Shown here in pieces: positions 25,636 to 42,509 of a DNA stretch of 54,361 nucleotides. Positions within the stretch are counted from its first letter, which is position 1. Every line of letters begins with the position of its first letter. The notes under the pieces are model-generated. The model made no database searches and was not told where the DNA came from. It worked only from the letters and a program-made list of their open reading frames with translations. Position numbers and translations under genes: made by a program. This DNA is from Zetaproteobacteria bacterium. GTDB taxonomy: Bacteria > Pseudomonadota > Zetaproteobacteria > Mariprofundales > Mariprofundaceae. The stretch lies in the NCBI GenBank assembly GCA_036985955.1, contig BTQQ01000001.1:1-54361 (forward strand), in the 5' to 3' direction.

Positions 25636-26656
25636 CGAAACCCGAAAAAACAGACAGATTGCCATCTGGCTGCTGTGTGTCTGTGCCGCAATTTTTGTCA
25701 TGCTGGTGATTGGTGGCGCCACTCGCTTAACACATTCAGGTTTGTCGATGATGACCTGGGATCCGTTGATGGGCTGGATTCCACCCTTAAATCAGGCGCA
25801 GTGGCTCGATTCCTTTGAACACTACAAAAAAATTCCCGAATTTTATGAACTGAATCCCGATATGGATGTGGAAGGATATAAGAATATTTTTATGCTCGAA
25901 TATATCCACCGCGTCTGGGGCCGGTTAATCGGGCTCTTCTTTTTGCTGCCGTTTCTGTATTTCCTGATGGCCGGGAAGATAGCAAAATCATTCCGTCCCA
26001 AACTGATCATAATGTTTGTGCTGGGCGGCATGCAGGGCGTACTGGGCTGGTACATGGTCAGCAGCGGCTTTGATAATCCCCATGTTAGCCAGTATCGGTT
26101 GACAGCACATCTGTCGGCGGCTTTCATCATTTACGGATATATATTGTGGGTAGCGATGGGTCTGCTTTTCCCAGACAGGGATGCTTCCCTGTATGATGTC
26201 AGACCGCTAAGACGGCTGGCATTGGGCCTAACCGGCCTGATTGCGCTAACAGTCGTGGCTGGAGGTTTGGTGGCAGGGCTGAAGGCGGGATTCGCCTACA
26301 ACACATTCCCGTTAATGGAAGGGCACTTTATCCCGGAAGGCTATGCCATGCTTACCCCTTTTTACCTCAATTTCTTTGAAAACATTGCAGCGGTTCAGTT
26401 CGATCATCGCATTCTGGCCGAGACGCTGTTGTTGTGCGTATTCGGGTTGTGGTGGTATGCGCGAAAATTTACGCTATCGGACCGGGCGCGCATGGCATTC
26501 AATTTACTGTTGGGCATGGTTGTGCTGCAAGTATCTTTGGGTATCGCCACGCTGGTGATGGTGGTGCCCACATGGCTTGCCGTAACACATCAGGGTAGTG
26601 CCATGCTTTTGTTTACTGCCGCACTGTTTACCAATCACACACTACGCAGGAACTGA
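25628..26656 (+). CDS. ctaA: Heme A synthase (COX15/CtaA)
   Basis: GGATRLTHSGLSM, EYIHRVWGR and a HQGSAM region. The gene overlaps the preceding one by 8 nt. Confidence 0.9.
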   Translation: MPDETRKNRQIAIWLLCVCAAIFVMLVIGGATRLTHSGLSMMTWDPLMGWIPPLNQAQWLDSFEHYKKIPEFYELNPDMDVEGYKNIFMLEYIHRVWGRLIGLFFLLPFLYFLMAGKIAKSFRPKLIIMFVLGGMQGVLGWYMVSSGFDNPHVSQYRLTAHLSAAFIIYGYILWVAMGLLFPDRDASLYDVRPLRRLALGLTGLIALTVVAGGLVAGLKAGFAYNTFPLMEGHFIPEGYAMLTPFYLNFFENIAAVQFDHRILAETLLLCVFGLWWYARKFTLSDRARMAFNLLLGMVVLQVSLGIATLVMVVPTWLAVTHQGSAMLLFTAALFTNHTLRRN

Positions 26657-26660
26657 GGGT

Positions 26661-28010
26661 ATGCAAAACAGCGGATTAAGAAACATGTTGCCACTGGTTG
26701 GAATCTATGCCCTGCGTATGCTCGGCTTGTTTATGATTTTGCCTGTGTTTGCACTGTATGCCGAACATTTGCATGGCAGCACCCCCATGCTGGCCGGCTT
26801 GGCACTGGGTGCATACGGCCTGACCATGGCCTTACTGCAGATTCCATTTGGCATGCTATCGGACCGTTTCGGGCGAAAGCCGGTGATTGCCGCCGGGTTA
26901 CTGTTATTCGCGTTGGGCGGGGTGGTTGCGGCTATGTCCGATTCGGTGACTGGCGTAATTGCAGGCAGGTTGCTGCAAGGCTCAGGAGCCATTGCAGCGG
27001 CTGTGATGGCGCTGATTGCCGATCTGACTGATGAATCTCAGCGTACCAAGGCCATGGCGGTATTCGGTATAGGAATTGGCGCTTCATTTACCTTCGCCCT
27101 GATCCTTGGTCCCATGCTGGATAGCTATATCGGCGTGGATGGTTTGTTCTGGCTTGCATCTGTATTTGGTATCGTCGGTATCGTCATTCTCTATCTGTTT
27201 GTGCCAAATCCTCAACACAGTCATATGCATCGTGATGTTGAAGTAGAGCCGATGAAACTCAAGCAGATATTAGCCAACCGGCAATTGCTACGTATGGATT
27301 CCGGCATCTTTTTTCTTCACACGATGATGACATCCACGTTCATTGCTTTGCCCTTTGCCCTGCGCAATGATGTGCATTTGCCAACGGAAGCGCATGTGTG
27401 GTTCTACCTCCCCATTCTGCTGGCTTCCGTAGCCGGTATGATTCCTCTGATTATTGTGGCAGAGAAATACGGGAAGATGAAACAGATTTTCACGGGATGT
27501 GTTGTTGCCCTGATTGTGGCGGAAGGGTTACTGGCGACGACACATCATTTCATGGCCGGACTCGTGGCCGGTACGTTTATCTATTTCGTGGCTTTCAATG
27601 CGCTCGAAGCAAGCCTGCCATCGCTGGTATCACGTATGGCCCCCGCGGCAGGAAAAGGGACTGCCATGGGTGTGTATTCTACCTCCCAGTTCTTCGGTGC
27701 ATTCTGCGGAGGTGTTTCCGGTGGCGTGATGTACGGAGCATTTGGTGTTGGCGGCGTATTCATGGTTAGCGCTGGCCTGGCGCTGATCTGGCTACTGGTT
27801 TGTCGTGGCATGCGTTTTCCCATGAACCTATCAAGCAAAATGATTCCTGTCGGTAGCATCAATCAGGTGGAAGCCGAAGCACTTGCTGGAAAGCTGAAGC
27901 AGGTACGCGGTGTCGAGGATGTTACGATAGCTCAGGAAGAGGGTGTGGCCTATCTGAAGGTGGATGAAAATCAGTATAACCCGGATGTAATTCCCGAATT
28001 GCTTAAGTGA
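26661..28010 (+). CDS. MFS transporter with a soluble C-terminal extension of about 60 aa
   Basis: MFS signature GMLSDRFGRKPVI and 12 predicted TM helices. The C-terminal tail reads INQVEAEALAGKLKQVRGVEDVTIAQEEGVAYLKVD. ATG at 26661 follows GAGGG. Confidence 0.85.
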   Translation: MQNSGLRNMLPLVGIYALRMLGLFMILPVFALYAEHLHGSTPMLAGLALGAYGLTMALLQIPFGMLSDRFGRKPVIAAGLLLFALGGVVAAMSDSVTGVIAGRLLQGSGAIAAAVMALIADLTDESQRTKAMAVFGIGIGASFTFALILGPMLDSYIGVDGLFWLASVFGIVGIVILYLFVPNPQHSHMHRDVEVEPMKLKQILANRQLLRMDSGIFFLHTMMTSTFIALPFALRNDVHLPTEAHVWFYLPILLASVAGMIPLIIVAEKYGKMKQIFTGCVVALIVAEGLLATTHHFMAGLVAGTFIYFVAFNALEASLPSLVSRMAPAAGKGTAMGVYSTSQFFGAFCGGVSGGVMYGAFGVGGVFMVSAGLALIWLLVCRGMRFPMNLSSKMIPVGSINQVEAEALAGKLKQVRGVEDVTIAQEEGVAYLKVDENQYNPDVIPELLK

Positions 28011-28100
28011 TGGTGATTTTCCAAAAAAACACCATTACATGCACGGACGGACTTTTTATGATGGAATCAAATGATTAGTTTGTATGGGGATTTGTGAAAA

Positions 28101-29276
28101 ATGCAGGTTAGCGCGTTCGCACTGTTTCGGCTCGGGTTTCGACCGTTTTTTCTGACTGCGGTATTGTTCTCGGTTATAGTCATGAGTATCTGGATGCTGC
28201 AACTTGTTTTTTCTATCAAAGTTCTTCCATCCGATATTACGCCAATGTTCTGGCATGCGCATGAAATGATTTATGGCTATGCGTTGGCGGTTGTGGCGGG
28301 TTTTCTCCTCACCGCTGTCAGAAACTGGACCAGGATTCAAACCATCCATGGCCTGCCTCTGCAATTGTTGCTTCTGTTCTGGGTTCTGGCCCGAATTGCA
28401 TCGCTGATTCCCGGTCCGCATGCCCTGATTGCAGGAGTGATTATGGATAATATATTCATCGCTTCTCTGTCACTTGCCATCACGATACCGGTTGTCCGGG
28501 CAAGGTTATGGAAGAATATGAGTGTGGTGTCCAAAATTTATTTTCTTCTGATTGGGAATATTATTTATTCTCTTGGCCTTCTCGGTATGTTTTCCGGCGG
28601 GGAACGCATCGGGATTTATATTGGGCTGTATATGATTCTCTCTCTGATTCTTGTGTTGTCACGCAGGGTTATGCCGATGTTCATTGAGGGAGGAGTGGGT
28701 TATACCGTATCCCTGAAAAATCATTTATGGGTGGATATCTCAGGATTCCTTCTATTTCTCACTTTTGCGGTCTCCGATACTTTCTTTACTACCCCCGCGT
28801 TGACCGCATGGCTGGCGGCCGCATTATTTATTCTACACTGTATTCGACTTTGGGGATGGCATACACATGGTATATGGGATAAACCATTACTGTGGGTGCT
28901 GTATCTTGCTTATGCATGGATCATCCTCGGTTTTGGGCTAAAATTTGTTGCTTTCATAGCCGGTATTCCGCCCTCGCTGGCGGTTCACGCGTTTACTGTT
29001 GGAGGCATCGGCATGATGACGCTGGGCATGATGGCGCGGGTGTCTCTGGGGCATACCGGAAGAAATATCATGCAGCCGCCATCCGGGCTTGGCCCGATAT
29101 TTTTCATGTTGTTTCTCGGCGCATTCGTGCGGGTTGTTTTTCCGCTGATGTTCGCGGGTCACTACCTGTTATGGATTGGAATATCGCAAGTGTTCTGGAT
29201 CGGGGCCTTTTCATTATTCCTGTATATCTATGCACCCATCCTGATACGCCCGCGTATCGATGGACAATGGGGTTAA
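28101..29276 (+). CDS. nnrS: NnrS family heme/copper membrane protein
   Basis: FRPFFL, WHAHEMIYGYALAVVAGFLLTAVRNWT and HAFTVGGIG, typical of NnrS. Confidence 0.85.
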   Translation: MQVSAFALFRLGFRPFFLTAVLFSVIVMSIWMLQLVFSIKVLPSDITPMFWHAHEMIYGYALAVVAGFLLTAVRNWTRIQTIHGLPLQLLLLFWVLARIASLIPGPHALIAGVIMDNIFIASLSLAITIPVVRARLWKNMSVVSKIYFLLIGNIIYSLGLLGMFSGGERIGIYIGLYMILSLILVLSRRVMPMFIEGGVGYTVSLKNHLWVDISGFLLFLTFAVSDTFFTTPALTAWLAAALFILHCIRLWGWHTHGIWDKPLLWVLYLAYAWIILGFGLKFVAFIAGIPPSLAVHAFTVGGIGMMTLGMMARVSLGHTGRNIMQPPSGLGPIFFMLFLGAFVRVVFPLMFAGHYLLWIGISQVFWIGAFSLFLYIYAPILIRPRIDGQWG

Positions 29277-29410
29277 CGTTACAACCATCCGGTGAGCCGT
29301 TTACTGACTATCTGCTCCCGTTGTGGTTTCTTGCAAGAAGAGCAAGCATTACTGCGGGAGCGCACCTTGTACCTGACCGGCTTGCAACTCGTTGAAGAGC
29401 GATTTCAGCG

Positions 29411-30004
29411 CTAGGTCCAGCGCAGCCAGTGGCGAATCGTGTTTGCGATATCTTCCGGTTTACTGGTGTGGCTCATGAGTTTGTCGAGGTTGCCATCCGG
29501 GCGGACAATGATGATGAAGGAAGCATGGCTGACGGTATAGTTACCCTTCTTGTCCGGTGCTTCTTTTTTATAGCCTGATAAAAAAGATTTCGCGGCGGCC
29601 TCAATCTCTTTTGAGTTACCGCTTAGCCCCACGATATGAGGATTAAAATGCCGGGCATATTTTGCCATCACTTCAGGAGTATCACGATCCGGGTCCGTGG
29701 TGATAAATACCGGTAGAACTTTGGCCAATTCATCTGAATCCAGCAACTTGAGTGCTGCTCCGATTCTAACCAGTGTGCCAGGGCAGACGTCGGGGCAATG
29801 GGTATAACCGAAGTAAATCACGCCAACCTTGCCCAGCATATCCTTGGAAGTGACTGGGCCATCGACACTATGTAGGGAAAATTTACCATGGATATCAGGA
29901 TAATGGCTGGGAGGCATCCTGTTCATGCTGTATATACCGAAGCCAAAAAAAGCTGCGGTAAGTCCGAGAAGGATGAAAGGAAAAATGTTGCGTTTGCGGC
30001 TCAT
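29411..30004 (-). CDS. SCO family copper chaperone/thiol-disulfide protein
   Basis: Canonical FGYTHCPDVCP motif, a distal His (VSHAS) and an N-terminal TM anchor. Confidence 0.9.
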   Translation of the reverse strand: MSRKRNIFPFILLGLTAAFFGFGIYSMNRMPPSHYPDIHGKFSLHSVDGPVTSKDMLGKVGVIYFGYTHCPDVCPGTLVRIGAALKLLDSDELAKVLPVFITTDPDRDTPEVMAKYARHFNPHIVGLSGNSKEIEAAAKSFLSGYKKEAPDKKGNYTVSHASFIIIVRPDGNLDKLMSHTSKPEDIANTIRHWLRWT

Positions 30005-30127
30005 AAATAGATGGCTCCATTGATAGTGGAATGGTATTTGCGACGAAGCATATCATCGGGGATGGTTTGTTACAGGGAATGCAGCTTCGGCTAAAATAAA
30101 TGTATTATCTAATGCAGGTGAAATTCT

Positions 30128-30541
30128 CTAAAATTGTTTCAGATATTCGATAATTTCCGTTCGTTCTTTCTCAGATTTAATACCCGGTATTGCCATAAGC
30201 GTGCTGGGCTTGATTCCGGTCGGGTCTTTCAACCACTGTCCCAGAGATTTTTCATCCCATTTTTTAAAGGGGACGCCTGATATGCTGGGGGCACGGCCAA
30301 CGATGCCCTTCAGGGGAGGCCCTACTTTGCTGATATTTCTGTCCATATAATGGCACGTGCCACATTTCTCATGGGCCAGTTTAGCGCCGGGAAGTGATTC
30401 TCTTGCCAAATTTTCAAGGGTTGAACTGATAATGCCGCTTGACGGGTGTTCTTCTTTATTCTGGCCGCATGCGGCCACATTCATGACCAGTATGACAGGC
30501 AGGATTCTGATAACAAAACGGCACATGAATAACCCTCTCAT
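30128..30541 (-). CDS. c-type cytochrome lipoprotein
   Basis: Lipobox NVAAC, heme motif CGTCH and a distal Met (STLMAIPG). It resembles the cytochrome at 13554. Confidence 0.8.
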   Translation of the reverse strand: MRGLFMCRFVIRILPVILVMNVAACGQNKEEHPSSGIISSTLENLARESLPGAKLAHEKCGTCHYMDRNISKVGPPLKGIVGRAPSISGVPFKKWDEKSLGQWLKDPTGIKPSTLMAIPGIKSEKERTEIIEYLKQF

Positions 30542-30628: not shown

Positions 30629-30651
30629 TCGCAGTTGAAAATTTGATCCGG

Positions 30652-30780
30652 CTTTATCAAGAGCAGTGGAGGGTTTCAGGCCCTGTGAAACTGCGGCAAC
30701 CGGCCAACGATGTTAAAGTAAAACGTCCGAGGCGTCCGGTGCCAATGCCTGCTTCCTGATTGAAAGGAAGAGCGATGAGG
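30652..30780 (+). promoter_or_regulatory. SAM-I (S-box) riboswitch aptamer
   Basis: CUUUAUCAAGAGCAGUGGAGGGUUUCAGGCCCUGUGAAACUGCGGCAACC ... GGUGCCAAUGCCUGC ... AGCGAUGAGG matches the conserved S-box blocks (UAUCAAGAG, GGAGGG, GGCCC..UGAA, GCAACC, GGUGCCAAU.CC.GC, AG.GAUGAG). P1 closes as CUUUAUC/GAUGAGG. Confidence 0.9.
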
Positions 30781-30816
30781 TGCGGTTGTCAATGTTCGTG
30801 GATTTTACGCGCATAC

Positions 30817-30848
30817 AACCTCGCTTTATTCAGGCGGGGTTTCTTTTT
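30817..30848 (+). terminator. Riboswitch expression platform: intrinsic terminator
   Basis: Stem CCUCGC / GCGGGG with loop UUUAUUCAG, followed by UUUCUUUUU. The 5' arm (ACCUC) can alternatively pair with the P1 3' strand (GAGGU), which gives an anti-terminator logic. Confidence 0.75.
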
Positions 30849-30889
30849 GCCTGTTCTTCTTGATATCTCCGGTATTGGAGCTGTTTAAA

Positions 30890-32143
30890 ATGAGCAAGAG
30901 TATTGCGCGGGCACTGAAATGCCGGGAATGCGGCCAGGAATATGACATTGCGCCGGAGCATGTGTGCGAGTTCTGTTTCGGGCCGCTGGAAGTGGCCTAT
31001 GATTACGATAAGCTGGCCGGAAAATTCACCCGTGAATTGATTGAGTCACGCCCGCAAACAATGTGGCGCTATAAGGAATTGCTGCCGGTGGACGGCGATC
31101 CGACAGTGGGCGTACAGAATGGATTCACGCCACTGGTGCGTGCCCGTAACCTGGAAAAGGCGTTGGGCGTATCCGAGTTGTATATCAAGAATGATTCCGT
31201 GTGTTATCCAACACTGTCGTTTAAGGATCGTGTGGTTTCCGTGGCGTTGTCCAAGGCGGTGGAGTTTGGCTACAAAACCGTAGCCTGTGCTTCTACGGGC
31301 AATCTGGCCGGTTCGGTGGCGGCCAACGCAGCAGCTGCCGGACTCAAGTCCTATGTGTTCATTCCGCATGATCTGGAACGGGGTAAAGTGCTGGGCGCTG
31401 CCATTTATGGAACCACGATGATTGGTATCAAAGGCAATTATGACGATGTGAACCGCCTTTGCTCCGAAATCGCCGGAAAGTACGACTGGGCCTTTGTAAA
31501 CGTAAATGTGCGGCCATTCTATGCCGAAGGATCGAAAACGCTCTGTTATGAAGTGATGGAACAACTGGGCTGGCGCGCGCCGAAACATGTGGTGGTGCCG
31601 ATGGCATCGGGCTCGCTGTGCACCAAAATTCATAAGGCCATTAAGGAATTTGTTCAGCTCGGGCTGGTGGAGGATGTCGAGACCAGAATGTATGGTGCGC
31701 AAGCTACGGGTTGTTCACCAATTTCCAAATCGGTCAAGGAGGGGACGGACCTGATTCATCCGGTACGGCCTGATACCATTGCCAAATCGCTGGCCATTGG
31801 TAATCCGGCAGATGGTTATTATGCCAATCGGGTGATACGTGAAACCGGTGGATGGTCCGAGGATGTATCTGATGATGAAATTGTGGCAGCAATGCGCCTG
31901 CTGGCCGAAACCGAGGGCATCTTCACGGAAACTGCCGGGGGCGTTACCCTTGGTGTGGCGAAGAAGCTGATTGAGCAGGGCCGTATTCCGCGTGACGAAT
32001 CAATTGTCCTGTGTGTGACGGGCAACGGCCTGAAGACGCAGGAAGCGATTGCCGGTAAGGTGGCGGAACCACGTATTATAGGTCCAAGCCTGGATGAGTT
32101 TGATGCGCTGGCTGAGGCGGATGCGGCGCAGCTGGCGGCATAA
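30890..32143 (+). CDS. Threonine synthase-like PLP enzyme with N-terminal zinc ribbon (MetM-like candidate)
   Basis: CRECGQEY...CEFCFGPLE zinc ribbon, PLP-lysine motif LSFKDRVVSVAL and a fold-type II PLP core. ATG at 30890 follows GGAG. Confidence 0.85.
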   Translation: MSKSIARALKCRECGQEYDIAPEHVCEFCFGPLEVAYDYDKLAGKFTRELIESRPQTMWRYKELLPVDGDPTVGVQNGFTPLVRARNLEKALGVSELYIKNDSVCYPTLSFKDRVVSVALSKAVEFGYKTVACASTGNLAGSVAANAAAAGLKSYVFIPHDLERGKVLGAAIYGTTMIGIKGNYDDVNRLCSEIAGKYDWAFVNVNVRPFYAEGSKTLCYEVMEQLGWRAPKHVVVPMASGSLCTKIHKAIKEFVQLGLVEDVETRMYGAQATGCSPISKSVKEGTDLIHPVRPDTIAKSLAIGNPADGYYANRVIRETGGWSEDVSDDEIVAAMRLLAETEGIFTETAGGVTLGVAKKLIEQGRIPRDESIVLCVTGNGLKTQEAIAGKVAEPRIIGPSLDEFDALAEADAAQLAA

Positions 32144-32176
32144 TGTTAAGAAACAGCGAATAACAGGAGTGATAAC

Positions 32177-32458
32177 ATGAGTGTAACCGTACGTATCCCA
32201 ACCCCGTTGCGTAAGTTGACAGGTGGCACCGATGAGGTATCGGTTGATGCGGCCAACGTGGGTGAAATGATTGAGAATCTGGAGAGCGCACATGCCGGGT
32301 TGAAGGAGCGATTATGCGATGAATCCGGCGATATTCGACGTTTCGTGAACATTTATGTGAACGACGAAGATGTACGTTTCCTTCAAGGTAAAGATACGCC
32401 GCTGGCAGACAATGATCAGGTGTCCATTGTGCCCGCCATTGCAGGCGGGAACGCCTGA
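32177..32458 (+). CDS. CysO/MoaD/ThiS-family sulfur-carrier protein
   Basis: MSVTVRIPTPLRKLTGG ... RFVNIYVNDEDVRF ... VSIVPAIAGG-NA. It closely resembles CysO-type carriers. The Gly-Gly is followed by two extra residues. Confidence 0.85.
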   Translation: MSVTVRIPTPLRKLTGGTDEVSVDAANVGEMIENLESAHAGLKERLCDESGDIRRFVNIYVNDEDVRFLQGKDTPLADNDQVSIVPAIAGGNA

Positions 32459-32474
32459 GTATTCGGAGAAAGCT

Positions 32475-32714
32475 TTGAAACAGCGTGTTTATCTGACGTT
32501 TTCAAGAGAAACGGTACGTGAACCTCTGATCTGGAAGGTAGGGCGGGAGTTTGACGTGATTACCAATATCCGCACCGCTGAGGTGAAAGAGGACATGGGT
32601 CTCGTCGGACTGGAGCTTGAGGGTACACAGGATACCGTTGAGCAGGCTCTGGCCTGGCTTAAAGCACAGGGCGTACACGTCGAACCCATCGAGCAGAACA
32701 TTATCGAAGGCTGA
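32475..32714 (+). CDS. Stand-alone NIL-domain protein
   Basis: 79 aa, starting at a TTG after GGAG. The pattern EPLIWKVGREFDVITNIRTAEVKEDMGLVGLELEG..DTVEQALAWLKAQGVHVE is typical of the NIL (MetN C-terminal) fold. It contains no Cys. Confidence 0.7.
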   Translation: MKQRVYLTFSRETVREPLIWKVGREFDVITNIRTAEVKEDMGLVGLELEGTQDTVEQALAWLKAQGVHVEPIEQNIIEG

Positions 32715-32802
32715 GCATACATTATGGCTCGGGGTTTCCTTGTGCTATAAAGTACAGTAATATTGTTGTTGAAATAATTATTTACAGCATATGAGGTGTA
32801 TT

Positions 32803-33735
32803 ATGGTTATATTTAATAATATCGCGGAAACAGTGGGGCATACCCCCCTGGTGCGCTTGCAACGCATGGGTGGTGAGTTAAAGGCTGAAATTCTATTGAA
32901 GCTGGAATTCCGAAATCCACTGAACTCCGTTAAGGACCGTATTGGCAAGGCAATGATTGAGGCTGCCGAAGCGGATGGAAGCCTCAAACCGGGTGGCGTG
33001 ATTGTCGAACCGACCAGTGGCAATACAGGGATTGCGCTGGCATTCGTTGCGCGCGCCAAGGGGTATCGCTGTATATTGACCATGCCGGAATCCATGAGTC
33101 TGGAACGGCGCAAGTTGTTGAAATTACTGGGTGCGGAACTGCAATTAACACCGGCGGAAAAGGGCATGAAGGGTGCAATTGAAAAGGCAACTGAGATTGT
33201 CAGCAAGACCGAGGGCGCATTCATGCCACAGCAGTTTGAAAATCCGGCCAATCCGGAGATCCATCGCAAAACGACTGCGGAGGAAATCTGGGCGGATACG
33301 GATGGGAATGTCGATGCGATTATCGCGGGTGTAGGCACGGGTGGCACCATTACCGGTGTGGCCGAAGTGATTAAATCGCGTAATCCCGATTTTCAGGCTA
33401 TTGCGGTAGAGCCTGCTGATTCGCCTGTCATTTCCGGAGGCAAACCGGGACCGCACAAAATACAGGGTATTGGCGCGGGCTTTATTCCGAAGAATCTGAA
33501 CGTGGATATCGTTGATAGCGTGGAACAGGTCAGCAACGAAGATGCCTTGAGTACGGCACGTCGCTTATCGGATGAGGAAGGCATTGCCGGTGGCATTTCC
33601 TCCGGTGCGGCTATGGCCGCGGCACTGAAAGTGGCGGCAAGACCGGATATGGAAGGCAAACGTATCGTGGTCATCCTGCCATCCATGGCAGAACGCTATA
33701 TGTCCACGGATTTGTTTAAAGGAATTGAAGTTTAA
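32803..33735 (+). CDS. cysK: Cysteine synthase A (O-acetylserine sulfhydrylase)
   Basis: NSVKDR PLP lysine, [20 protein letters not shown] and C-terminal ERYMSTDLF. It is collinear with E. coli CysK. Confidence 0.92.
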
Positions 33736-33754: not shown

Positions 33755-34579
33755 GTGATTGATTTTACAGAAGAACAAATTGAGCGCTATTCGCGCCATA
33801 TTATCCTGCCAGAGGTTGGCGGTGAGGGACAGTCAAGGTTGCTTGAGTCCAAGGTGTTTATGATTGGTGCAGGTGGACTGGGCAGTCCCGTGGCCTATTA
33901 TCTGGCGGCAGCAGGCGTGGGAACCATTGGCATCGCCGATGCCGATGTGGTGGATATGTCCAATCTCCAGCGCCAGATTATTCATAACAATGAACGTATT
34001 GGCATGGAAAAGGTGGAGAGCGCGAAAAAGACCATACAAGCGCTGAATCCGGATGTGAATGTTATTACCTACACCGAGCGTGTCACCGAGGAAAATGTGC
34101 GCGAGATTATTCGTGATTACGATCTGATTGTGGACGGTTGTGATAATTTCCCGACCCGTTTTCTGGTCAACGATGCCTGTTTTTTCGAGCAGAGAACACT
34201 GGTTTCAGGCGCGATGTTCCGCTTCGAAGGGCAAGTGACGACATTCAAGCCCCATACGGACAGGGAAGGCCCGTGCTATCGCTGCCTGTATCCCGAGCCG
34301 CCTCCGGCAGGTCTGGTACCAAGCTGTTCCGAAGCCGGGATTCTGGGCGCATTGGCCGGATCTGTAGGCACAATTCAGGCTGTGGAAGTGATTAAGGAGT
34401 TATTGGGTATTGGCAATTCCCTGTCCGGCTATCTTATGACCTTTGATGCGCTACGCATGGAGTGGCGTAAACTGAAGCTTCGCAAGGATCCGGCCTGCCC
34501 GTTGTGCTCGGAAAAAGCGACCATCAAGGATTTGATTACTTATGATGAGGCGTGTGAATTGCGCGCCGCTCAAGCCTGA
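33755..34579 (+). CDS. ThiF/MoeB-family E1-like adenylyltransferase (no rhodanese domain)
   Basis: RYSRHIILPEVG, GAGGLGS and two CxxC pairs (CYRC, CPLC). The GTG start follows GGAGGG. Confidence 0.88.
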   Translation: MIDFTEEQIERYSRHIILPEVGGEGQSRLLESKVFMIGAGGLGSPVAYYLAAAGVGTIGIADADVVDMSNLQRQIIHNNERIGMEKVESAKKTIQALNPDVNVITYTERVTEENVREIIRDYDLIVDGCDNFPTRFLVNDACFFEQRTLVSGAMFRFEGQVTTFKPHTDREGPCYRCLYPEPPPAGLVPSCSEAGILGALAGSVGTIQAVEVIKELLGIGNSLSGYLMTFDALRMEWRKLKLRKDPACPLCSEKATIKDLITYDEACELRAAQA

Positions 34580-34590: not shown

Positions 34591-36924
34591 ATGGCAGCAG
34601 CTGAACCGATAAATTTCGCCAGTGAAGGCGATATTGAGGAATATGAAGCAGGATTAAAGGCATTCCTGGACGGGCGTATGCCCGAGGAACGCTTTACGCC
34701 GTTCCGGTTGCAAATGGGTGTGTATGGCCAGCGGCAGGATGGTGTGCAGATGATGCGCATAAAACTACCCGGTGGCTGTTTGACGCCCGCGCAACTGGAT
34801 GTGATTGCTGATATTGTGGACCAGTATGCTGGTGAGCTTGGCGCACCCAAGCTGGCACATGTGACAACGCGGCAGGATATTCAGGCGCATTTTCTGCGTC
34901 TGGAGGATACGCCTGCCATCCTGCGTAAGCTGGCCAAAGCTGGTATGACCACGCGCGAGGCTTGCGGCAATACTGTACGCAACGTGACATCATGTTTCCT
35001 GTCCGGTGTATGCCCCGCCGAACATGCCAATGTTAATGTGCATGCTCAGCGTTTTGCCGATTTTTATTTACGGCATCCATTGACGCAGCAATTTCCACGT
35101 AAATTCAAGGTTACCTTTTCAGGTTGTGCCACGGACTGCGGGCTTTCGGCTATGCATGACATCGGCTTTATAGCGAAAACGGAAAACGGCAACCATGGTT
35201 TTGAGGTCTGGGCGGCCGGTGGGTTGTCCACCCATCCGGTTTCGGCCATTAAACTCGAAGACTTTATCGAGGAGAAAGAACTCCTGCTGGTTGGTGAAGC
35301 GCTGATGCGCATTCATTTCAAGTATTCGGACCGCAAACATCGTGCGCGGGCGCGCATGAAATATGTATTGATGAAGCTCGGCGCTGAAGGCTTTATTGAC
35401 CTGTATCGCAAGGAACGTGCGGCTGTGGAAAAGGCGCACGGTACTGATTCGGGGTATCCCGAAGCGAACTGGCGTGAACCGTCCGGCCCGCTTCCGTTTC
35501 ATGGTGACCCAGTAGTGGATCAGCATGATAGTCGCAAGGCTGTGCTGCTCAATCTGTTCCGTGGTGATCTGACACCGGCGCAGTGCCATGCCGTAGCAGA
35601 GGCGGCACGTGTGGGTGGTAGCAATGATATTCGCGTTACGCCCGAACAGGGCGTGGTCGTTACCGGTGTTGTACCGGAAAAAACGGATGAGGTAATAGCT
35701 ATTCTGGATGCCGCCAGGATTACAACCAGGCATGCACGTGGTATTTCCGATGTGACGGCGTGCCCCGGTGTGGAATCCTGCCGGTTGGCCATTACCAATT
35801 CCTATGGACTGGCCGATACCATTAAACCGGAGCTTGAAAAGTTGACCGTGAACTATCCCGATCTTGCCGGGATACAGGTTAAAATTTCGGGGTGCCAACA
35901 CTCCTGTGGCCAACATCATATCGCCGATCTCGGGTTCCACGGCCTGGCGAAGAAGATCGAGAGCAGGGCCGTGCCACATTATCAATTGCATGTTGGCGGT
36001 TCAGGTAAGGCGGGCGAGGCTTTTGGTTATGCCACGAATCCCGTACCAGCCAAGCGTGCGCCGGAAGCGGGAATCGCCGTGCTTCGTACCTATCAGGAGG
36101 AGCGGGAAACGGATGAAAGCGTGCATGATTGGGCGGCCCGCGTTGGCAAGGATGGCATCAATGCTATTTTGGCACCATTTTCCGCCGGTGAGGGCGAGGT
36201 TGAAGGGTTGATGTATGACTGGAGCGAGAATCAGCCCTTCTCGACCAAAGATAACAAGCCGGGCGAGTGCGCCGCCGCCGTGGTTGGCATGACCGATGCG
36301 CTGGTCGCCGAGGCTCAATATGAATTGCGTGTCGGCACTGCCCATCTGGATTCCATGTTCTGGGCTGAGGCATTGGAGGGCTACAAGCAGTCCGCCATCT
36401 CTGCCGCACGAGCCTTTCTGGTCGTCTACGGTGAAAAGCCGGAGGATGATGCGCAAGTTTTTGGCCTGCTGGCTGGCCTTGCCGTGGCCGACAAGGAGGT
36501 CTCCGGCGGCTTGGCCAAGGCAACATCGGCATTAATGAACGTCAATATCGCCGATCCTGCGCCGGGTGTCACCGCCTTGCGGGATGTGGTTGAAGCATTT
36601 GTTGATCTTGCGTCCGTCCGGTTTGCACCGGTGCCTCAGGAAGAATCCAAAGCACCGGATGCACCTGCCGCGAAACAGACATCAGCCGGAGATGGAGAAC
36701 CGATTCTGCTAGACCTCACAGGTGTGGCCTGTCCGATGAATTTCGTCAAGACTAAACTGAAACTGGAAACGCTGCCGGCTGGCGCGCGTCTGTCAGTGAT
36801 TCTTGATGATGGCGAACCCATCGAGAATGTTCCGCGTTCCCTGGAAGAACAGGGGCAGAAGGTACTTGCGCAGGAGAAAATTTCTGACAGCCAGTGGAAG
36901 ATTCTGGTGGAGAAGTCTGCCTAA
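34591..36924 (+). CDS. Ferredoxin-type sulfite (nitrite) reductase fused to a helical linker domain and a C-terminal TusA/SirA domain
   Basis: Siroheme/4Fe-4S motifs are CPGVESC and GCQHSCGQH. The last 73 aa (36703-36921) read LDLTGVACPMNFVKTKLKLETL..., which is TusA-like. Confidence 0.85.
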   Translation: MAAAEPINFASEGDIEEYEAGLKAFLDGRMPEERFTPFRLQMGVYGQRQDGVQMMRIKLPGGCLTPAQLDVIADIVDQYAGELGAPKLAHVTTRQDIQAHFLRLEDTPAILRKLAKAGMTTREACGNTVRNVTSCFLSGVCPAEHANVNVHAQRFADFYLRHPLTQQFPRKFKVTFSGCATDCGLSAMHDIGFIAKTENGNHGFEVWAAGGLSTHPVSAIKLEDFIEEKELLLVGEALMRIHFKYSDRKHRARARMKYVLMKLGAEGFIDLYRKERAAVEKAHGTDSGYPEANWREPSGPLPFHGDPVVDQHDSRKAVLLNLFRGDLTPAQCHAVAEAARVGGSNDIRVTPEQGVVVTGVVPEKTDEVIAILDAARITTRHARGISDVTACPGVESCRLAITNSYGLADTIKPELEKLTVNYPDLAGIQVKISGCQHSCGQHHIADLGFHGLAKKIESRAVPHYQLHVGGSGKAGEAFGYATNPVPAKRAPEAGIAVLRTYQEERETDESVHDWAARVGKDGINAILAPFSAGEGEVEGLMYDWSENQPFSTKDNKPGECAAAVVGMTDALVAEAQYELRVGTAHLDSMFWAEALEGYKQSAISAARAFLVVYGEKPEDDAQVFGLLAGLAVADKEVSGGLAKATSALMNVNIADPAPGVTALRDVVEAFVDLASVRFAPVPQEESKAPDAPAAKQTSAGDGEPILLDLTGVACPMNFVKTKLKLETLPAGARLSVILDDGEPIENVPRSLEEQGQKVLAQEKISDSQWKILVEKSA

Positions 36925-36939: not shown

Positions 36940-38166
36940 ATGACGATTTTTGATAATTCCGGCCGTACCAAGTTGGCCCTGGTGACGCACGGCGTAACGC
37001 TTCCCGATGGTTTGCCACAGGCCTCTCACTGGATTTCCCAGGCCAATGCCGTGGAAACGGTACTGGATATGCGCCTTCCCAGTGGGCACTTTGCAACCGT
37101 TCCTGTAGCCCAGCCGTTTACGGAGAAGAGTCCGATTGCACTGCATGTTACGGAAGATGGATGTGAACTGGCACACGAAGGTGAGAGGCTGCACGTGGAA
37201 TTGCTTGCGGCGCCTAAATATTACCATCGGACGACACGCGCCGGTGCCCGTATGGGGAGCTTCTCGTCGCTGCATGATAAATTACTGATTTTGCATCCGC
37301 TGATGGGCTGTGGGTTTTTCGCCGATCAGGGGAAGGCCTGCCAGTACTGTCAGTATGATTCGATGCTGAATGAAGCGATCCCACCGTTACGCGATCCGCT
37401 GGAACTGGTGGAGGTGGTGCGGGCGGCGCTGGCCGAGCGTGAAGTGGACACGGTGTATCTGTACAATGGTCATGTGCCGGGGGATCAGGCGGGACTGGAT
37501 CGTCTGATTTCGCTAATTGCACTGTTGCGCCGTCACCTGGGGCATCGTCAAATTGCATTGGAAACCGTAGCGCCACGCGATACCTCCATGATCGACGACC
37601 TGTATGCCGCAGGGCTGGATGTGCTGATTTGCAATCTTGAATTATTCGATGAAGAACGATTTGCCACTGTCTGTCCCGGCAAACAGGCCGAAGGCGGTCA
37701 GGAAGCGATATGGCGCGCGCTTGGGCATGCTGCTTCGGTATTCCGCGAGGGAGCGGTTGTCAGCCACCTGATTTTGGGTCTGGAACCGGTGAAATCGACG
37801 ATTTCCGGCATGGAAGCCCTGGTGGAACATGGCGTGGTGCCGTTGTTGATTCCCTTTCGCCCATTGCCAGGGACGCCTTTGGAACATACGGCCCTTCCGG
37901 ATATGGATGCCGCCGAGGAAGCCTTTCTCGCATTGTATGACATTCTGGCGGCATCCGGTTTGCCGACGCATCGTTTGCGCGATATGGGGCGTGTGCTTAC
38001 GCCAATGGAAAGCAGGGTGCTGGTAGGGCGAGAGGTATCCTTGCCGGAACGCCTGACGTTGACTCCTGTGGGCAGAAAGATGGGTGGATGGTTCGATGCC
38101 TTGCGGCGTACACTCAGAGTACAATATACCGATTCAGAAACGGGACGGGGCGGGACAGGACACTAG
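36940..38166 (+). CDS. Uncharacterised radical-SAM-like protein with a C-X9-C-X2-C motif
   Basis: CGFFADQGKACQYCQY (C124, C134, C137), followed by TIM-barrel-like alternating segments (VYLYNG, ALETV, VLICNLELFDE, HLILGL, PLLIPFRP). No family could be assigned by eye. Confidence 0.55.
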   Translation: MTIFDNSGRTKLALVTHGVTLPDGLPQASHWISQANAVETVLDMRLPSGHFATVPVAQPFTEKSPIALHVTEDGCELAHEGERLHVELLAAPKYYHRTTRAGARMGSFSSLHDKLLILHPLMGCGFFADQGKACQYCQYDSMLNEAIPPLRDPLELVEVVRAALAEREVDTVYLYNGHVPGDQAGLDRLISLIALLRRHLGHRQIALETVAPRDTSMIDDLYAAGLDVLICNLELFDEERFATVCPGKQAEGGQEAIWRALGHAASVFREGAVVSHLILGLEPVKSTISGMEALVEHGVVPLLIPFRPLPGTPLEHTALPDMDAAEEAFLALYDILAASGLPTHRLRDMGRVLTPMESRVLVGREVSLPERLTLTPVGRKMGGWFDALRRTLRVQYTDSETGRGGTGH

Positions 38167-38167: not shown

Positions 38168-39595
38168 ATGCCAGTCATTTTTGATAACCGGCCCATGCAC
38201 GTATTGCTGGCGCAGAAGGGACTGCCGTTTGCGGCACTGGCTTTCCTTGCGGTGATAGCATGGTGGGCGGTGGGACAAGAGGTGCCTGCCGGATTGAGTC
38301 ATTCTGGCTGGCGCGCCATCATTGTTTTTACCCTTTGTCTTGTTCTCTGGATATCCCAATTATTGCCATTAGCGGTTACTGCTATCCTGGGACTGGCTTT
38401 GCTGCCCTTACTGGATGTGATGCCGGCTAATGAAACCTTTGCCTTGTTCGGTAACCCTGCCGTGTTTTTTATTCTGGGCGCATTTATGCTGGCTGCGGGC
38501 GTGATCAAGTCCGGGCTCTCCGAACATCTTGCTCTGGCCTTGCTGGAACGGGTGGGATCAAGTCCCCGGCGATTACTGCTGGCAATGCTGTTGTTGCCCG
38601 CATTCATGGCTTTCTTTATGCCTGAACATGCCGTGGCAGCGGTATTTCTTCCGCTTGCATGGGAGGTTGTCCGGGCGCTTGGGCTCAAGCCGGGAGACCG
38701 GTATGCACAATCGGTGTTTCTTGCTATGGCATGGGGCGCCATCGTAGGCGGCGTTGCCACCTTGCTGGGTGGTGCACGCGGACCGCTGGCCATGGCGCTG
38801 GTACAGGAATTAGCCGGTAAATCATTTTCGTTCCTTGACTGGACCATCGCCGCAGCACCACTGGTTGCCGGTATGCTGGCCGTCGGTGCTGTATTGCTTC
38901 TTTTGGTTACGCCAGTTCATGGGATTGATGTTGGGTCCGTCCGCGAAACAATTGAGAAGAAACGGCTGGAATCCGGTTTGCTTAATTGGCAAGGGCGTAT
39001 CATGGCTCTGTTGATGGTTGTGACCATCATCGCATGGCTGTTTGCAGGGCATGCGGTCGGACTTGCCAGTATTGCTCTAATCAGCGTCGTATGCATGTTT
39101 GCACTGCGGCTGGTTTCATGGAAAGAAATTCAGGCAAACGTAAGCTGGGATGTGGTCTTGCTATACGGTGGGGCGATAGCCATCGGCAAGGCGATTGCCG
39201 TGACGGGCGCGGGCGCATGGTTGGCTTCATGGTTGTTGCCAGTGGGTGCAGCGGGTTTGGGATTATTATTTCTGATGGCGTTGGCGACTTTGCTGTTAAC
39301 CGAGGGGGTAAGCAATTCTGCCGCCGTGGCCATTATGTTGCCTGTGGCGATTCCGGCAGGGCTGGCTGCAGGCATGAATCTCGTGACTGTATCCATGGCC
39401 GTTGGAATTGTTGCGGGATTTGCCTTCATGTTACCCATGGGAACGCCGCCCAATGCCATGATTTTTGCTACAGGCTACGTGAAAACTGCCACAATGTTGC
39501 GCTATGGAGCTCTCATGTCTGTCGCGGCATTCACCCTGTTTGCATTGACGGTCTGGTTGTGGTGGCCTCTTGCAGGCATTGGAGTGATGAAGTGA
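38168..39595 (+). CDS. SLC13/DASS-family anion permease (probable sulfate transporter)
   Basis: Polytopic 475-aa protein with DASS-like repeated hairpin regions (TEGVSNSAAVAIMLP, MLPMGTPPNAMIF). The ATG lies 1 nt after the preceding stop. Confidence 0.8.
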   Translation: MPVIFDNRPMHVLLAQKGLPFAALAFLAVIAWWAVGQEVPAGLSHSGWRAIIVFTLCLVLWISQLLPLAVTAILGLALLPLLDVMPANETFALFGNPAVFFILGAFMLAAGVIKSGLSEHLALALLERVGSSPRRLLLAMLLLPAFMAFFMPEHAVAAVFLPLAWEVVRALGLKPGDRYAQSVFLAMAWGAIVGGVATLLGGARGPLAMALVQELAGKSFSFLDWTIAAAPLVAGMLAVGAVLLLLVTPVHGIDVGSVRETIEKKRLESGLLNWQGRIMALLMVVTIIAWLFAGHAVGLASIALISVVCMFALRLVSWKEIQANVSWDVVLLYGGAIAIGKAIAVTGAGAWLASWLLPVGAAGLGLLFLMALATLLLTEGVSNSAAVAIMLPVAIPAGLAAGMNLVTVSMAVGIVAGFAFMLPMGTPPNAMIFATGYVKTATMLRYGALMSVAAFTLFALTVWLWWPLAGIGVMK

Positions 39596-40314
39596 ACACA
39601 TCGGCATTGATTGAGTCCACCGTAGCACTACTGCGGCAAGCCAGAGACAAACATGGCGACCGTCTGATTTACCCCTGTGCCATGGGTTCGGAAGGAATGG
39701 TTCAGATTGATCTGATCTGCAAACAGGTCACCGGAATTCGTATTATGACGCTGGACACGGGTCGCCTGCCACAGGCTACCTATGAATTGATGCAGAAAGT
39801 GCGCGAGCATTATGGTATTGATCTGGAAATCATGTTTCCAGACCGGGATGAGGTTGAGGCCATGGTGCGCGAACGCGGAGTGAACCTGTTTTATCACTCG
39901 GTTGAAAACCGCAAACTTTGCTGTGGTATACGCAAAGTGCACCCGCTTAAACGGGCGCTTACCGGTATGGAAGCATGGATCACGGGACGACGCCGGGATC
40001 AATCGGAGAACCGTGCGGTAGTTCAACCGGTTGAGGATGATCCGGTTTTTGGCCTGATAAAGTATAATCCCATGCTTGACTGGACGGAAAGCGATATCTG
40101 GGCCTATATCCGGGAGCATGATGTGCCTTATAACCGCTTACACGATGAACATTATGTCTCGATTGGATGCGAATGTTGTACCCGTGCCATTACCGCCGGA
40201 GAAGACCCGCGCGCCGGGCGCTGGTGGTGGGAGAACGAAGACACCCTGGCTGAATGCGGGCTGCATGTCAGTTCACTGAATGCGGGTGAAGGAGAGGCGG
40301 GTGAGGGGATATAG
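39592..40314 (+). CDS. cysH: Assimilatory adenylyl-sulfate (APS) reductase, Fe-S type
   Basis: KLCCGIRK plus GCECC cysteines and the C-terminal ECGLH. The GTG start overlaps the permease stop (GTGA), after GGAG. The track ORF (38986) is an artefactual upstream extension. Confidence 0.9.
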   Translation: MNTSALIESTVALLRQARDKHGDRLIYPCAMGSEGMVQIDLICKQVTGIRIMTLDTGRLPQATYELMQKVREHYGIDLEIMFPDRDEVEAMVRERGVNLFYHSVENRKLCCGIRKVHPLKRALTGMEAWITGRRRDQSENRAVVQPVEDDPVFGLIKYNPMLDWTESDIWAYIREHDVPYNRLHDEHYVSIGCECCTRAITAGEDPRAGRWWWENEDTLAECGLHVSSLNAGEGEAGEGI

Positions 40315-40323: not shown

Positions 40324-41232
40324 ATGAGTGAACACAGACTCACGCAACTCAAGACGCTGGAAGCGGAGTCCATCCACATCATGCGGGAAGTGGTGGCCGA
40401 GTTTCGCAATCCGGTCATGCTTTATTCCATTGGTAAGGATTCCAGTGTGATGTTGCATCTGGCACGCAAGGCTTTTTATCCTGCGCCGTTGCCATTTCCA
40501 CTGTTGCATGTGGATACTGCCTATAAGTTTCCCGAGATGTATGAATTTCGTGAATGGTTTGTGAAGGAAATTGGTGCGGAGTTGATTGTCAGGCGTAATG
40601 AAGACGCTATCAATAAGGGAATGAATCCCAAGGAATACGGCGTGGCGCGATGCTGCGGTGCATTGAAGACGCAGGGTCTGCTGGATGCGCTGGAAGAGGG
40701 GAATTACGATGCCGCTTTTGGCGGTGCGCGGCGCGACGAGGAGCGCAGCCGTGCCAAGGAGCGCGTGTTTTCCATTCGTGATGAATTCGGTCAGTGGGAT
40801 CCGAAGAACCAGCGGCCTGAATTGTGGGATATCTACAATGGCCGTATCCATGAGGGCGAGAGTGTACGCGTATTCCCCTTGTCCAACTGGACGGAAATGG
40901 ATATCTGGCTCTATATCCGCGAAGAAAATATCCCGATCGTGCCGTTGTATTATGCCAAAAAGCGGCCGATGGTGGAACGGGGAAGTCTGCTGATTCCGTA
41001 TTATGAAGAAACAAAGGATCAGCTTTTGAAAGGCGAAGAACCAACAATGGTGATGAGCCGTTTCCGAACACTGGGCTGTATGCCATGCACGGGGGCTGTG
41101 CGTTCCAATGCTACTACGATTGATGAAATCGTGGCGGAGGCCGCTGCTGCGCGCAGAAGCGAGCGCGAAACACGCATTATCGATCATGGCGCCAATACCA
41201 TGGAAGACAAGAAGAAAGAAGGGTATTTTTAG
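40324..41232 (+). CDS. cysD: Sulfate adenylyltransferase subunit 2
   Basis: 302 aa with PAPS-reductase-fold motifs ([23 protein letters not shown]). Confidence 0.95.
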
Positions 41233-41234: not shown

Positions 41235-42509
41235 ATGACAGCAAATATCAATTTTAAACTCAGCCAGACTATCCAACTGCTGCGACTGGCTACGGTAGGC
41301 AGTGTAGATGATGGCAAATCAACCCTGATTGGCCGTCTTCTGGTGGATACCAAAGGAGCTTTTGAGGATCAGTTGCTTTCAGTAACGCGCAAGAAAGGTG
41401 CTGCATCAGAGGCTGAAGTAGATCTTGCCATGTTGACGGATGGTTTATCCGCCGAACGCGAACAGGGCATCACGATTGATGTCGCATACCGTTATTTTGC
41501 TACGCCGAAACGAAAATTTATCATGGCTGACTGTCCAGGCCACGAGCAATACACACGCAATATGGTAACAGGGGCTTCTACGGCCAATGCCGCCATCATC
41601 CTGATTGACGCTCGCAATGGGGTCATGCCGCAAACCAAAAGGCATACGCATATCCTGGGCCTGCTGGGAACGCCTCATCTGGTTGTTGCCATCAATAAAA
41701 TGGACATGGTGGAGTATGATCAGGGTATATTTGAGAAAATTCGTACCGATATCAACGCTTATTGTGAAAAACAGGGGATCAAGGATCTGAGTTGTATTCC
41801 AATATCGGCTTTGCATGGCGATATGGTAGTTACGCGCGGCGATTCCATGCCCTGGTATAAAGACAGAACATTGCTGGAAACACTTGAATCGATTGAAGTA
41901 ACCGACCATATCGAGCGCTTGCCGTTCCGTTTTGCAGTGCAATATGTCAATCGTCCGCAAACAGAAAATCTACCAGACTTCCGGGGTTATTGCGGCCGCA
42001 TCAATTCCGGCACTGTACGTGTCGGTGATACGGTAGCGTTATTACCAAGCGGCAAGACATCCCGCATTAAGGAAATTGTCACGTTTGACGGAAATCCGGA
42101 TGAAGCATTTGCACCACAGAGTGTAACACTGACATTGGCGGATGATATTGATATTTCACGTGGTGATATGATTGTACATTCAGACCCAATACCTGAAATA
42201 CGCAAGGAAATTGAAGGAATAGTCTGCTGGATAGGTGATGAACCGTTGGAAGTACGCAAAAAATATATCATTAAGCAAACTACGAACTCAGTGCGGGCCG
42301 TTGCAACGGATATTGTTTATCGCACCGATATTCACACCTTGAATCGAGATGATGCAGACGAACTGGGAGTCAATGAAATTGGCCGGGTGAGCTTTAAACT
42401 GGCACAGCCAATTTATTGCGATACGTATGCGGACAATCGCGCCACCGGCAGCTTTATCATTATTGATACGTTTACCAATATTACGGTTGGCGCCGGCATG
42501 ATTTGTTGA
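41235..42509 (+). CDS. cysN: Sulfate adenylyltransferase subunit 1 (GTPase, no APS-kinase domain)
   Basis: G-domain motifs GSVDDGKST, DCPGH and NKMD. At 424 aa it lacks a CysC fusion. Confidence 0.93.
   Translation: MTANINFKLSQTIQLLRLATVGSVDDGKSTLIGRLLVDTKGAFEDQLLSVTRKKGAASEAEVDLAMLTDGLSAEREQGITIDVAYRYFATPKRKFIMADCPGHEQYTRNMVTGASTANAAIILIDARNGVMPQTKRHTHILGLLGTPHLVVAINKMDMVEYDQGIFEKIRTDINAYCEKQGIKDLSCIPISALHGDMVVTRGDSMPWYKDRTLLETLESIEVTDHIERLPFRFAVQYVNRPQTENLPDFRGYCGRINSGTVRVGDTVALLPSGKTSRIKEIVTFDGNPDEAFAPQSVTLTLADDIDISRGDMIVHSDPIPEIRKEIEGIVCWIGDEPLEVRKKYIIKQTTNSVRAVATDIVYRTDIHTLNRDDADELGVNEIGRVSFKLAQPIYCDTYADNRATGSFIIIDTFTNITVGAGMIC

Follow-up and report, generated by a model that had tools for sequence, protein, structure and literature searches.

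We analysed a 54-kb stretch of DNA (hereafter the window), in which an S-adenosylmethionine (SAM) riboswitch stands ahead of three genes encoding a threonine synthase (ThrC)-like enzyme, a CysO-type sulfur carrier and a stand-alone NIL-domain protein. The names of homologue hits put the window in the Zetaproteobacteria (Mariprofundaceae). Within the source genome, gene searches covered this window, and the results on domains missing from it cover 49 of its 51 open reading frame (ORF) calls, the two shortest (121-429 and 3510-3824) being left out of the scan.

Results

SAM-I riboswitch, ThrC-like enzyme, sulfur carrier and NIL protein lie in one row

The features at the head of the locus are as follows.

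30651..30781, + strand: SAM-I riboswitch aptamer (RF00162), matched by the full-length Rfam model
30817..30850, + strand: expression platform, an intrinsic terminator with hairpin (30817-30841, then TCTTTTTG) and U-run
30890..32143, + strand: metM-like gene for a ThrC-fold pyridoxal phosphate (PLP) enzyme of 417 aa with an N-terminal zinc ribbon (PALP, 231.7 bits)
32177..32458, + strand: metO-like gene for a CysO-type ubiquitin-like sulfur carrier of 93 aa (ThiS family, 62.7 bits)
32475..32714, + strand: gene for a stand-alone NIL-domain protein, ACT-like, Cys-free, 79 aa (PF09383, 52 bits against a cut-off of 24)

The metM-like gene starts with an ATG at 30890 preceded by GGAG, the carrier gene starts 33 nt past its stop, and the NIL ORF has a TTG start 5 nt past GGAGA and 16 nt after the carrier stop. 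A first-pass annotation of the window had described a zinc-ribbon ThrC-like enzyme followed after 33 nt by a CysO-type carrier and after another 16 nt by a NIL protein, and these coordinates were confirmed. Homologues numbering in the hundreds to thousands for each of the three ORFs, and a gene order kept across phyla, show that they are not chance ORFs.

For comparison, two sets of loci were collected. One genome per species was scanned with an alignment of the ThrC-like protein (MetM), which gave 80 loci with 59-82% identity, and the window's twin brought this set to 81 MetM loci, spanning Verrucomicrobiota, Planctomycetota, Nitrospirota, Cyanobacteria, Desulfobacterota, Acidobacteriota and other phyla. 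A metagenome scan with a six-sequence NIL alignment yielded a second set of 80 NIL-anchored loci.

The ThrC-like enzyme is a predicted MetM-type homocysteine synthase

The N-terminus of the ThrC-like protein carries a CxxC-x11-CxxC zinc ribbon, and K112, within an invariant SFKDR motif, is the Schiff-base/PLP lysine. The match to the ThrC structure 2ZSJ (E 1.8e-59) identified the protein as a ThrC-homologous fold-type II PLP enzyme. It could be an ordinary threonine synthase, with the riboswitch controlling the neighbouring sulfur-assimilation genes. Like ThrC, the enzyme has a PLP lysine and an ASTGN phosphate loop, a cyanobacterial homologue has reported threonine-related activities (PMC12172450), and threonine synthase is the name given in all public records, an annotation explained by the NCBIfam thrC cut-off, which the protein passes (TIGR00260, 285.9 bits against 167.1).

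However, identity to four crystallised bacterial ThrCs was no more than 38-40%, whereas values of 55-82% were seen for carrier-linked or SAM-linked homologues. A neighbour-joining tree placed the window protein among carrier-linked proteins and in another clade than the four crystallised ThrCs. The family motifs also differ, with RP[FY]YAEGSKT in place of NP[YH]R[IL]EGQKT and ASTGNLA in place of ASTGNTS, and the GNAGN loop of ThrC is absent from the MetM family. Furthermore, a CysO/MetO-like carrier gene was present in 76/81 MetM loci and a SAM-I riboswitch lay directly 5' of metM in 40/81, and there is no physiological logic in SAM repressing threonine synthesis. According to the GapMind study (10.1101/2024.10.14.618325), the characterised Streptomyces albulus enzyme is a homocysteine synthase. 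These results make threonine synthase a very improbable identity for the window enzyme. They support the earlier view that SAM control implies a role in methionine and not threonine synthesis, for which the carrier and riboswitch counts and the separate clade all speak.

In S. albulus, MetM, MetO, Mec and MoeZ turn O-phosphohomoserine into homocysteine, and MetM is a ThrC homologue, "often misannotated as such" (10.1101/2024.10.14.618325); MetO is a sulfur-carrier protein (10.1101/2024.10.14.618325; PMC12172450), and metM is preceded by a SAM riboswitch (PMC12172450). PMC12172450 also gives 51.6% identity between a Microcystis MetM homologue and S. albulus MetM; cyanobacterial homologues are 59-61% identical to the window MetM. 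The Streptomyces MetM/MetO route mentioned in the first-pass annotation matches this system, MetO being the carrier and NIL being neither MetM nor MetO. Taken through Actinoplanes and cyanobacterial homologues as proxies, the sequence evidence for orthology of the window enzyme to S. albulus MetM appears strong but indirect, and the window enzyme is predicted to be a carrier-thiocarboxylate-dependent homocysteine synthase acting on O-phosphohomoserine.

A predicted transcriptional SAM switch precedes metM

RF00162 was the single Rfam family matched in the window, scoring 74.6 bits where the gathering score is 44.4 (E 9.9e-16). This match at 30651-30781, together with the terminator behind it, bears out the SAM riboswitch that had been placed ahead of the three genes. 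The minimum-free-energy fold without ligand paired the P1 3' strand (30771-30781) with 30817-30826, in the 5' arm of the terminator hairpin; in this model the pairing is the antiterminator expected of a transcriptional OFF switch. The count of 40/81 riboswitch-preceded loci came from a profile search, and Rfam agreed with it in 14/14 loci checked (5/5 positives and 9/9 negatives). An Actinoplanes MetM homologue, 56% identical to the window protein, likewise lies downstream of a SAM-I riboswitch. A homology search started from an actinobacterial representative brought up Micromonosporaceae only. By analogy with switches of this kind, we infer that SAM controls metM through termination when SAM is abundant. 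That the window encodes a MetM/MetO route under SAM control is highly probable.

Another regulator was observed in five loci (L010, L011, L025, L030 and L041), where a gene of the Rrf2 family (PF02082, 141 bits) stands 5' of metM. All five are without a SAM riboswitch, and Rrf2 may be an alternative mode of regulation.

The carrier resembles CysO and ends two residues past its Gly-Gly

The carrier aligned end to end with Mycobacterium tuberculosis CysO (3DWG_C, E 2.7e-24). Its C-terminus reads ...AIAGG-NA, and since two residues follow the GG, the NA tail needs trimming before adenylation. Such a tail has a precedent in Wolinella, with HcyS-Ala and the protease HcyD. In the cultured Mariprofundus erugo, the carrier ends GG-C. 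Separately, three verrucomicrobial loci (L018, L020 and L034) were seen to hold two tandem MetO-like ORFs, each ending GG, between MetM and NIL.

The NIL protein keeps residues of the MetN methionine site

Homologue searches with the NIL protein found 345 sequences, and among the 120 listed most were 79 aa long. An ATG-started ORF at 32370 was considered as the NIL gene and rejected, as it overlaps the carrier gene and most listed homologues have 79 aa. The possibility that read-through joins MetO to NIL in the window was likewise rejected, because the frames differ ((32475-32177) mod 3 = 1). No dedicated NCBIfam model matched the protein.

The AlphaFold2 model of the NIL protein (predicted local distance difference test, pLDDT, 85.4) showed a beta-alpha-beta-beta-alpha-beta domain. 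Its best matches in the PDB were the C2 domains of Escherichia coli MetN (3TUI_D, template modelling (TM) score 0.87, root-mean-square deviation 0.8 Å, 31% identity), followed by ACT domains. N31 and A35 of the NIL protein aligned with N295 and A299 of MetN. In MetN C2, the bound L-methionine hydrogen-bonds N295 across the dimer and the N295A mutation abolishes binding, while A299 marks a switch of beta-sheet register in the C2 dimer (PMC6233128). Among 43 NIL sequences, the N31 position was kept in 81% and the A35 position in 93%, and both residues belong to TNIRxAxV, the NIL motif of highest conservation, which is on strand 2. A function of NIL as a redox or persulfide carrier was rejected, as no Cys is conserved across NIL sequences. 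Partners known from other NIL proteins, namely DUF39 and COG2122, were not found among the Pfam matches of the window, and the NIL ORF matched NIL only, with no ferredoxin domain.

NIL accompanies MetM/MetO in many phyla and can be fused to the carrier

NIL was present in 43/81 MetM loci, mostly directly 3' of MetO. It was found in 13/16 Verrucomicrobiota loci and in all loci of the Zetaproteobacteria, Tepidisphaeraceae, Nitrospirota-type and Desulfobacterota-type groups. When the search was anchored on NIL, the metagenome loci with at least 2.8 kb of upstream sequence had MetM and MetO in 33/33 cases; a second frequent layout of NIL loci was E1-MetM-MetO-CysM-like-NIL. In the loci examined, NIL was either stand-alone or fused to MetO and was never on an ATPase. 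We hold it highly likely that NIL has a real functional part in the MetM/MetO route.

A single ORF encoded both MetO and NIL in 11 cases (8 from genome loci, 3 from metagenome loci), with ...AIAGG followed by a basic linker of 3-25 residues and then by NIL. One natural fusion, with its JAMM protease, is that of Ca. Acidulodesulfobacterium (locus L035). A gene for a JAMM (Prok-JAB) protease was in the cluster for 10 of these 11 fusions, and the contig of the 11th ends early. JAMM was found in 3/73 unfused genome loci (nominal Fisher p = 2.7e-7 for the comparison with the eight genome-locus fusions). The carrier C-terminus was blocked, as by the NA of the window carrier, in 20/43 NIL loci as compared with 3/33 NIL-less loci (nominal p = 4e-4), and in 44/50 carriers of NIL-anchored loci. 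NIL and the SAM riboswitch showed no correlation across the 81 MetM loci (counts 24/19/16/22, p = 0.27), and the idea that NIL stands in for riboswitch control was rejected for this reason.

The first-pass annotation had proposed a feedback sensor or adaptor, an idea that comparative data do support through the MetO-NIL fusions, the co-occurrence with MetM/MetO and the retained residues of the MetN methionine site. We tentatively suggest, at somewhat below even chances, that NIL binds an amino-acid ligand resembling methionine or homocysteine, for regulation or for handling of an adduct at the carrier's C-terminus. The main rival to ligand binding is a structural role like that of MoaE, in which NIL would protect the thiocarboxylated C-terminus or hand it over, or would be required in catalysis, as in the DUF39 pathway. 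Here too the MetO-NIL fusions fit, since fusions such as ThiS-ThiG and MoaD-MoaE unite carriers with sulfur-transfer partners (PMC1779556); homocysteine synthesis in Desulfovibrio depends genetically on a NIL/ferredoxin protein (PMC5764234), and the presence of NIL tracks the state of the carrier C-terminus, not the riboswitch. On the other hand, NIL has neither Cys nor a cofactor motif, it is absent from the cyanobacterial and actinobacterial systems examined, and the relatives that have been characterised are all regulatory domains that bind methionine. We regard the structural role as a possible but rather unlikely alternative. More speculatively, by analogy with MetN, an ancestral or fused NIL might be a sensor pro-domain freed by JAMM, whose amino-acid binding and change of dimer register would gate carrier maturation, thiocarboxylation or adduct release; we hold this to be rather unlikely. 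NIL occurs in two unrelated homocysteine routes, MetM/MetO and DUF39, which suggests a common function in the recognition of homocysteine or methionine.

The three genes head an 11-gene sulfur-assimilation array

The array runs past NIL to 42509 and comprises 11 genes, all on the + strand. The measured junctions are at most 33 nt or overlapping, except for 88 nt before cysK. Behind NIL it contains the following genes.

32803..33735, + strand: cysK, O-acetylserine sulfhydrylase A type (TIGR01139, 460 bits against a cut-off of 351)
33755..34579, + strand: MoeB/ThiF-type E1 adenylyltransferase, predicted carrier activator (ThiF domain at residues 12-249 of 274)
34591..36924, + strand: NirA-type sulfite reductase (NIR_SIR, NIR_SIR_ferr) with a C-terminal TusA (SirA) domain at residues 707-775
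36940..38166, + strand: variant radical SAM protein (NF045502, 182 bits)
38168..39595, + strand: DASS-family anion symporter, likely a sulfate importer, its ATG 1 nt past the radical SAM stop
39592..40314, + strand: cysH, adenosine phosphosulfate (APS)/phosphoadenosine phosphosulfate (PAPS) reductase (PAPS_reduct, 162.5 bits), its GTG start overlapping the DASS stop
40324..41232, + strand: cysD, sulfate adenylyltransferase subunit
41235..42509, + strand: cysN, sulfate adenylyltransferase subunit

The cultured M. erugo has the same array, riboswitch included. It shares the sulfite reductase-TusA fusion (L163, 14126-16486), and its radical SAM and DASS parts form one ORF of 879 aa (Radical_SAM and Na_sulph_symp; L163, 16486-19125). 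A MetY (O-acetylhomoserine sulfhydrylase) domain was not found among the scanned window ORFs.

The spacer between NIL and cysK (32715-32802) is AT-rich, 88 nt long and holds a TAATAT box at 32758-32763, a possible internal promoter.

The carrier and its E1 might also serve mainly for cysteine synthesis, as CysO and CysM do, or for another thiocarboxylate product, with O-phosphoserine or an O-acyl-homoserine as the substrate of MetM. CysO is indeed the closest solved relative of the carrier, a cysteine synthase gene comes next after NIL, and in many related clusters a CysM-like enzyme of the PALP kind stands between MetO and NIL; as such enzymes adjoin MetO in many clusters, one carrier may feed two enzymes. 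However, the window enzyme is of the CysK1/OASS-A (O-acetylserine sulfhydrylase A) type and not CysM: the best PDB match of the cysK product was M. tuberculosis CysK1 (2Q3B, 410 bits), and CysM (3DWG_A) was not among its top 60 PDB matches. In addition, SAM control indicates methionine, MetM and not CysK is consistently linked to the carrier, and O-phosphohomoserine is established as the substrate of S. albulus MetM (10.1101/2024.10.14.618325). A carrier dedicated mainly to cysteine or another product is thus unlikely, and homocysteine is kept as the predicted product of the window's MetM.

The E1 of the array is of the rhodanese-less kind. Iyer et al. 2006 (PMC1779556) described operons in which ThiS/MoaD, a rhodanese-less E1 and SirA come together with genes of sulfate assimilation; in their sulfur-assimilation operons of "type 4e" the E1s are rhodanese-less and a SirA/TusA protein is always included. 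The TusA-fused sulfite reductase together with such an E1 suggests a direct hand-off of sulfur from sulfite reduction to carrier thiocarboxylation.

Two further observations concern carrier activation and sulfur supply elsewhere. In many soil-metagenome clusters with the layout E1-MetM-MetO-CysM-like-NIL (L083-L162), a short E1-like protein of about 220-265 aa with a weak score is encoded 3' of NIL (for example L108 4238-4891, L133 3054-3851 and L107 1845-2546); it keeps the MoeB N-terminal motif together with a CxxC at the C-terminus, so that a degenerate paralogue of E1 is a possible identity. In nine loci (L029, L037, L050, L057, L059, L062, L065, L077 and L080), mostly of Planctomycetota and most without NIL, MetM is followed, about 4 kb in the 3' direction, by a gene for a class-V aminotransferase/cysteine desulfurase (PF00266, 282 bits), and this desulfurase may be an alternative sulfur donor to the carrier.

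Outside the array, the window holds a 586-aa ORF (3870-5630) with an isocitrate/isopropylmalate dehydrogenase domain fused to a C-terminal DUF1451 zinc ribbon, and respiratory groups at 13965-20253 and 24226-30541. One respiratory group comprises COX3, SCO1-like, COX2, COX1, UbiA/CtaB and PCuAC-Sel1; the second, directly 5' of the riboswitch, comprises a divergent COX1-like protein, CtaA, an MFS transporter, NnrS, SCO1 and a cytochrome c.

Discussion

Taken together, we consider it likely that the array is a SAM-repressed sulfate-to-homocysteine operon headed by MetM/MetO, with NIL as an accessory, and it would probably supply cysteine too. At high SAM, the riboswitch would form P1, 30817-30826 would be freed and the terminator would stop transcription before metM, while at low SAM the antiterminator would form and the array would be transcribed. 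The DASS protein would import sulfate, CysDN would activate it, and CysH and the sulfite reductase would carry out its reduction. The MoeB-like E1 would adenylate the C-terminal Gly-Gly of MetO, after trimming of the NA residues by a peptidase encoded outside the window, and sulfide, or sulfur delivered via the fused TusA in place of a rhodanese, would convert the acyl-adenylate to the MetO thiocarboxylate (MetO-COSH). MetM would then eliminate phosphate from O-phosphohomoserine and add the thiocarboxylate at C-gamma, and homocysteine would be released by an S-to-N acyl shift and hydrolysis, on the analogy of CysO/CysM/Mec. CysK would turn sulfide into cysteine in parallel. NIL, as an ACT-like accessory, would act either as a methionine/homocysteine feedback sensor gating the maturation or use of the carrier, or as a handler of the C-terminal residue or homocysteine adduct of the carrier. 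We infer the steps of SAM termination, E1 adenylation, transfer from sulfide or TusA, gamma-replacement by MetM and hydrolytic release from analogy with the systems compared below.

Several results weigh against parts of this scheme. The enzyme passes the threonine-synthase cut-off, and its link to S. albulus MetM runs through proxies. Although the carrier has a tail, no JAMM/Mec (JAB/Mov34) domain was found among the scanned window ORFs, nor in the M. erugo cluster, and the window E1 is without the rhodanese domain of MoeZ; a JAMM/Mec hydrolase and a MoeZ-type E1 could be encoded elsewhere in the genome, and the TusA domain on the sulfite reductase may replace the rhodanese domain. SAM control of cysK-cysN is not certain, because the 88-nt spacer could hold an internal promoter. 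As for NIL, it was found in 0/15 cyanobacterial and 0/3 Gemmata-type (Gemmataceae/Gemmatales) MetM loci and was not adjacent to the one actinobacterial (Actinoplanes) homologue examined; its absence from the cyanobacterial loci and the Actinoplanes neighbourhood indicates that it is dispensable for the chemistry. NIL is also uncorrelated with the riboswitch, and the p-values from loci are nominal because the loci are phylogenetically non-independent.

The MetM/MetO pathway of S. albulus was reportedly described by Hasebe et al. (2024, Appl Environ Microbiol 90:e01247-24). Compared by description, the window shares with it the ThrC-homologous PLP enzyme, the ThiS/MoaD-type carrier, the SAM riboswitch on the 5' side and an E1 for thiocarboxylation. 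The window differs in lying in Zetaproteobacteria, in its rhodanese-less E1 and TusA fused to sulfite reductase, in a carrier with a GG-NA tail and no Mec/JAMM gene nearby, and in adding NIL and a complete sulfate-assimilation array. The HcyS/HcyD/HcyF/MetY system of Wolinella succinogenes and the "type 4e" operons (PMC1779556) are similar in their tailed carrier, rhodanese-less E1 and SirA/TusA, in the sulfite reductase, PAPS reductase and ATP sulfurylase of the cluster, and in homocysteine as the end product; unlike them, the window has a fold-type II ThrC homologue on O-phosphohomoserine in place of MetY on O-acetylhomoserine, and its cluster is without a JAB gene and with NIL. With CysO/CysM/Mec/MoeZ of M. 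tuberculosis, the window shares a carrier alignable with CysO over its whole length and the attack of a thiocarboxylate on a PLP-bound intermediate derived from a phospho-amino acid, whereas its predicted product is homocysteine, its cysteine synthase is of the CysK1 type and it has no Mec gene.

Two comparisons concern NIL. The C2 domain of E. coli MetN (3DHW, 3DHX, 3TUI, 3TUZ) has the same fold, with the N295/A299 equivalents on the same beta-strand, whereas the window NIL is a stand-alone protein of 79 aa (fused to MetO elsewhere) with no ABC ATPase attached. The NIL/ferredoxin proteins of the DUF39 pathway (MA1822, DvMF_0262) are alike in that a NIL domain is dedicated to a non-canonical homocysteine route; the window NIL differs in being without ferredoxin, Cys and DUF39/COG2122 partners, and its route is predicted to use O-phosphohomoserine and not aspartate semialdehyde.

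The MetM/MetO core was already published in 2024 and is in GapMind, so it is not novel. What appears to be new is its occurrence in Zetaproteobacteria, NIL as a conserved component, the MetO-NIL-JAMM fusions and the fusion of TusA to the sulfite reductase. The term "NIL" is absent from the GapMind 2026 text (10.1101/2024.10.14.618325), and a literature search found no paper tying NIL to MetM/MetO, a recent one not being excluded.

For the organisms themselves, the proposed operon would explain methionine synthesis in zetaproteobacterial iron oxidisers, including the cultured M. erugo. The zetaproteobacterial label "threonine synthase" is probably wrong, which bears on metabolic reconstructions and predictions of auxotrophy. 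NIL is a probable third conserved component of MetM/MetO systems in many phyla (among them Verrucomicrobiota, Planctomycetota, Nitrospirota, Desulfobacterota and Acidobacteriota), and the MetO-NIL fusions with linked JAMM, together with the link between NIL and blocked carrier ends, offer an experimental handle on carrier maturation and regulation. If the pro-domain idea is true, NIL would provide protein-level feedback on a prokaryotic ubiquitin-like sulfur carrier, in parallel to ubiquitin-fusion precursors, a kind of loop that to our knowledge has not been described for the MetM/MetO pathway.

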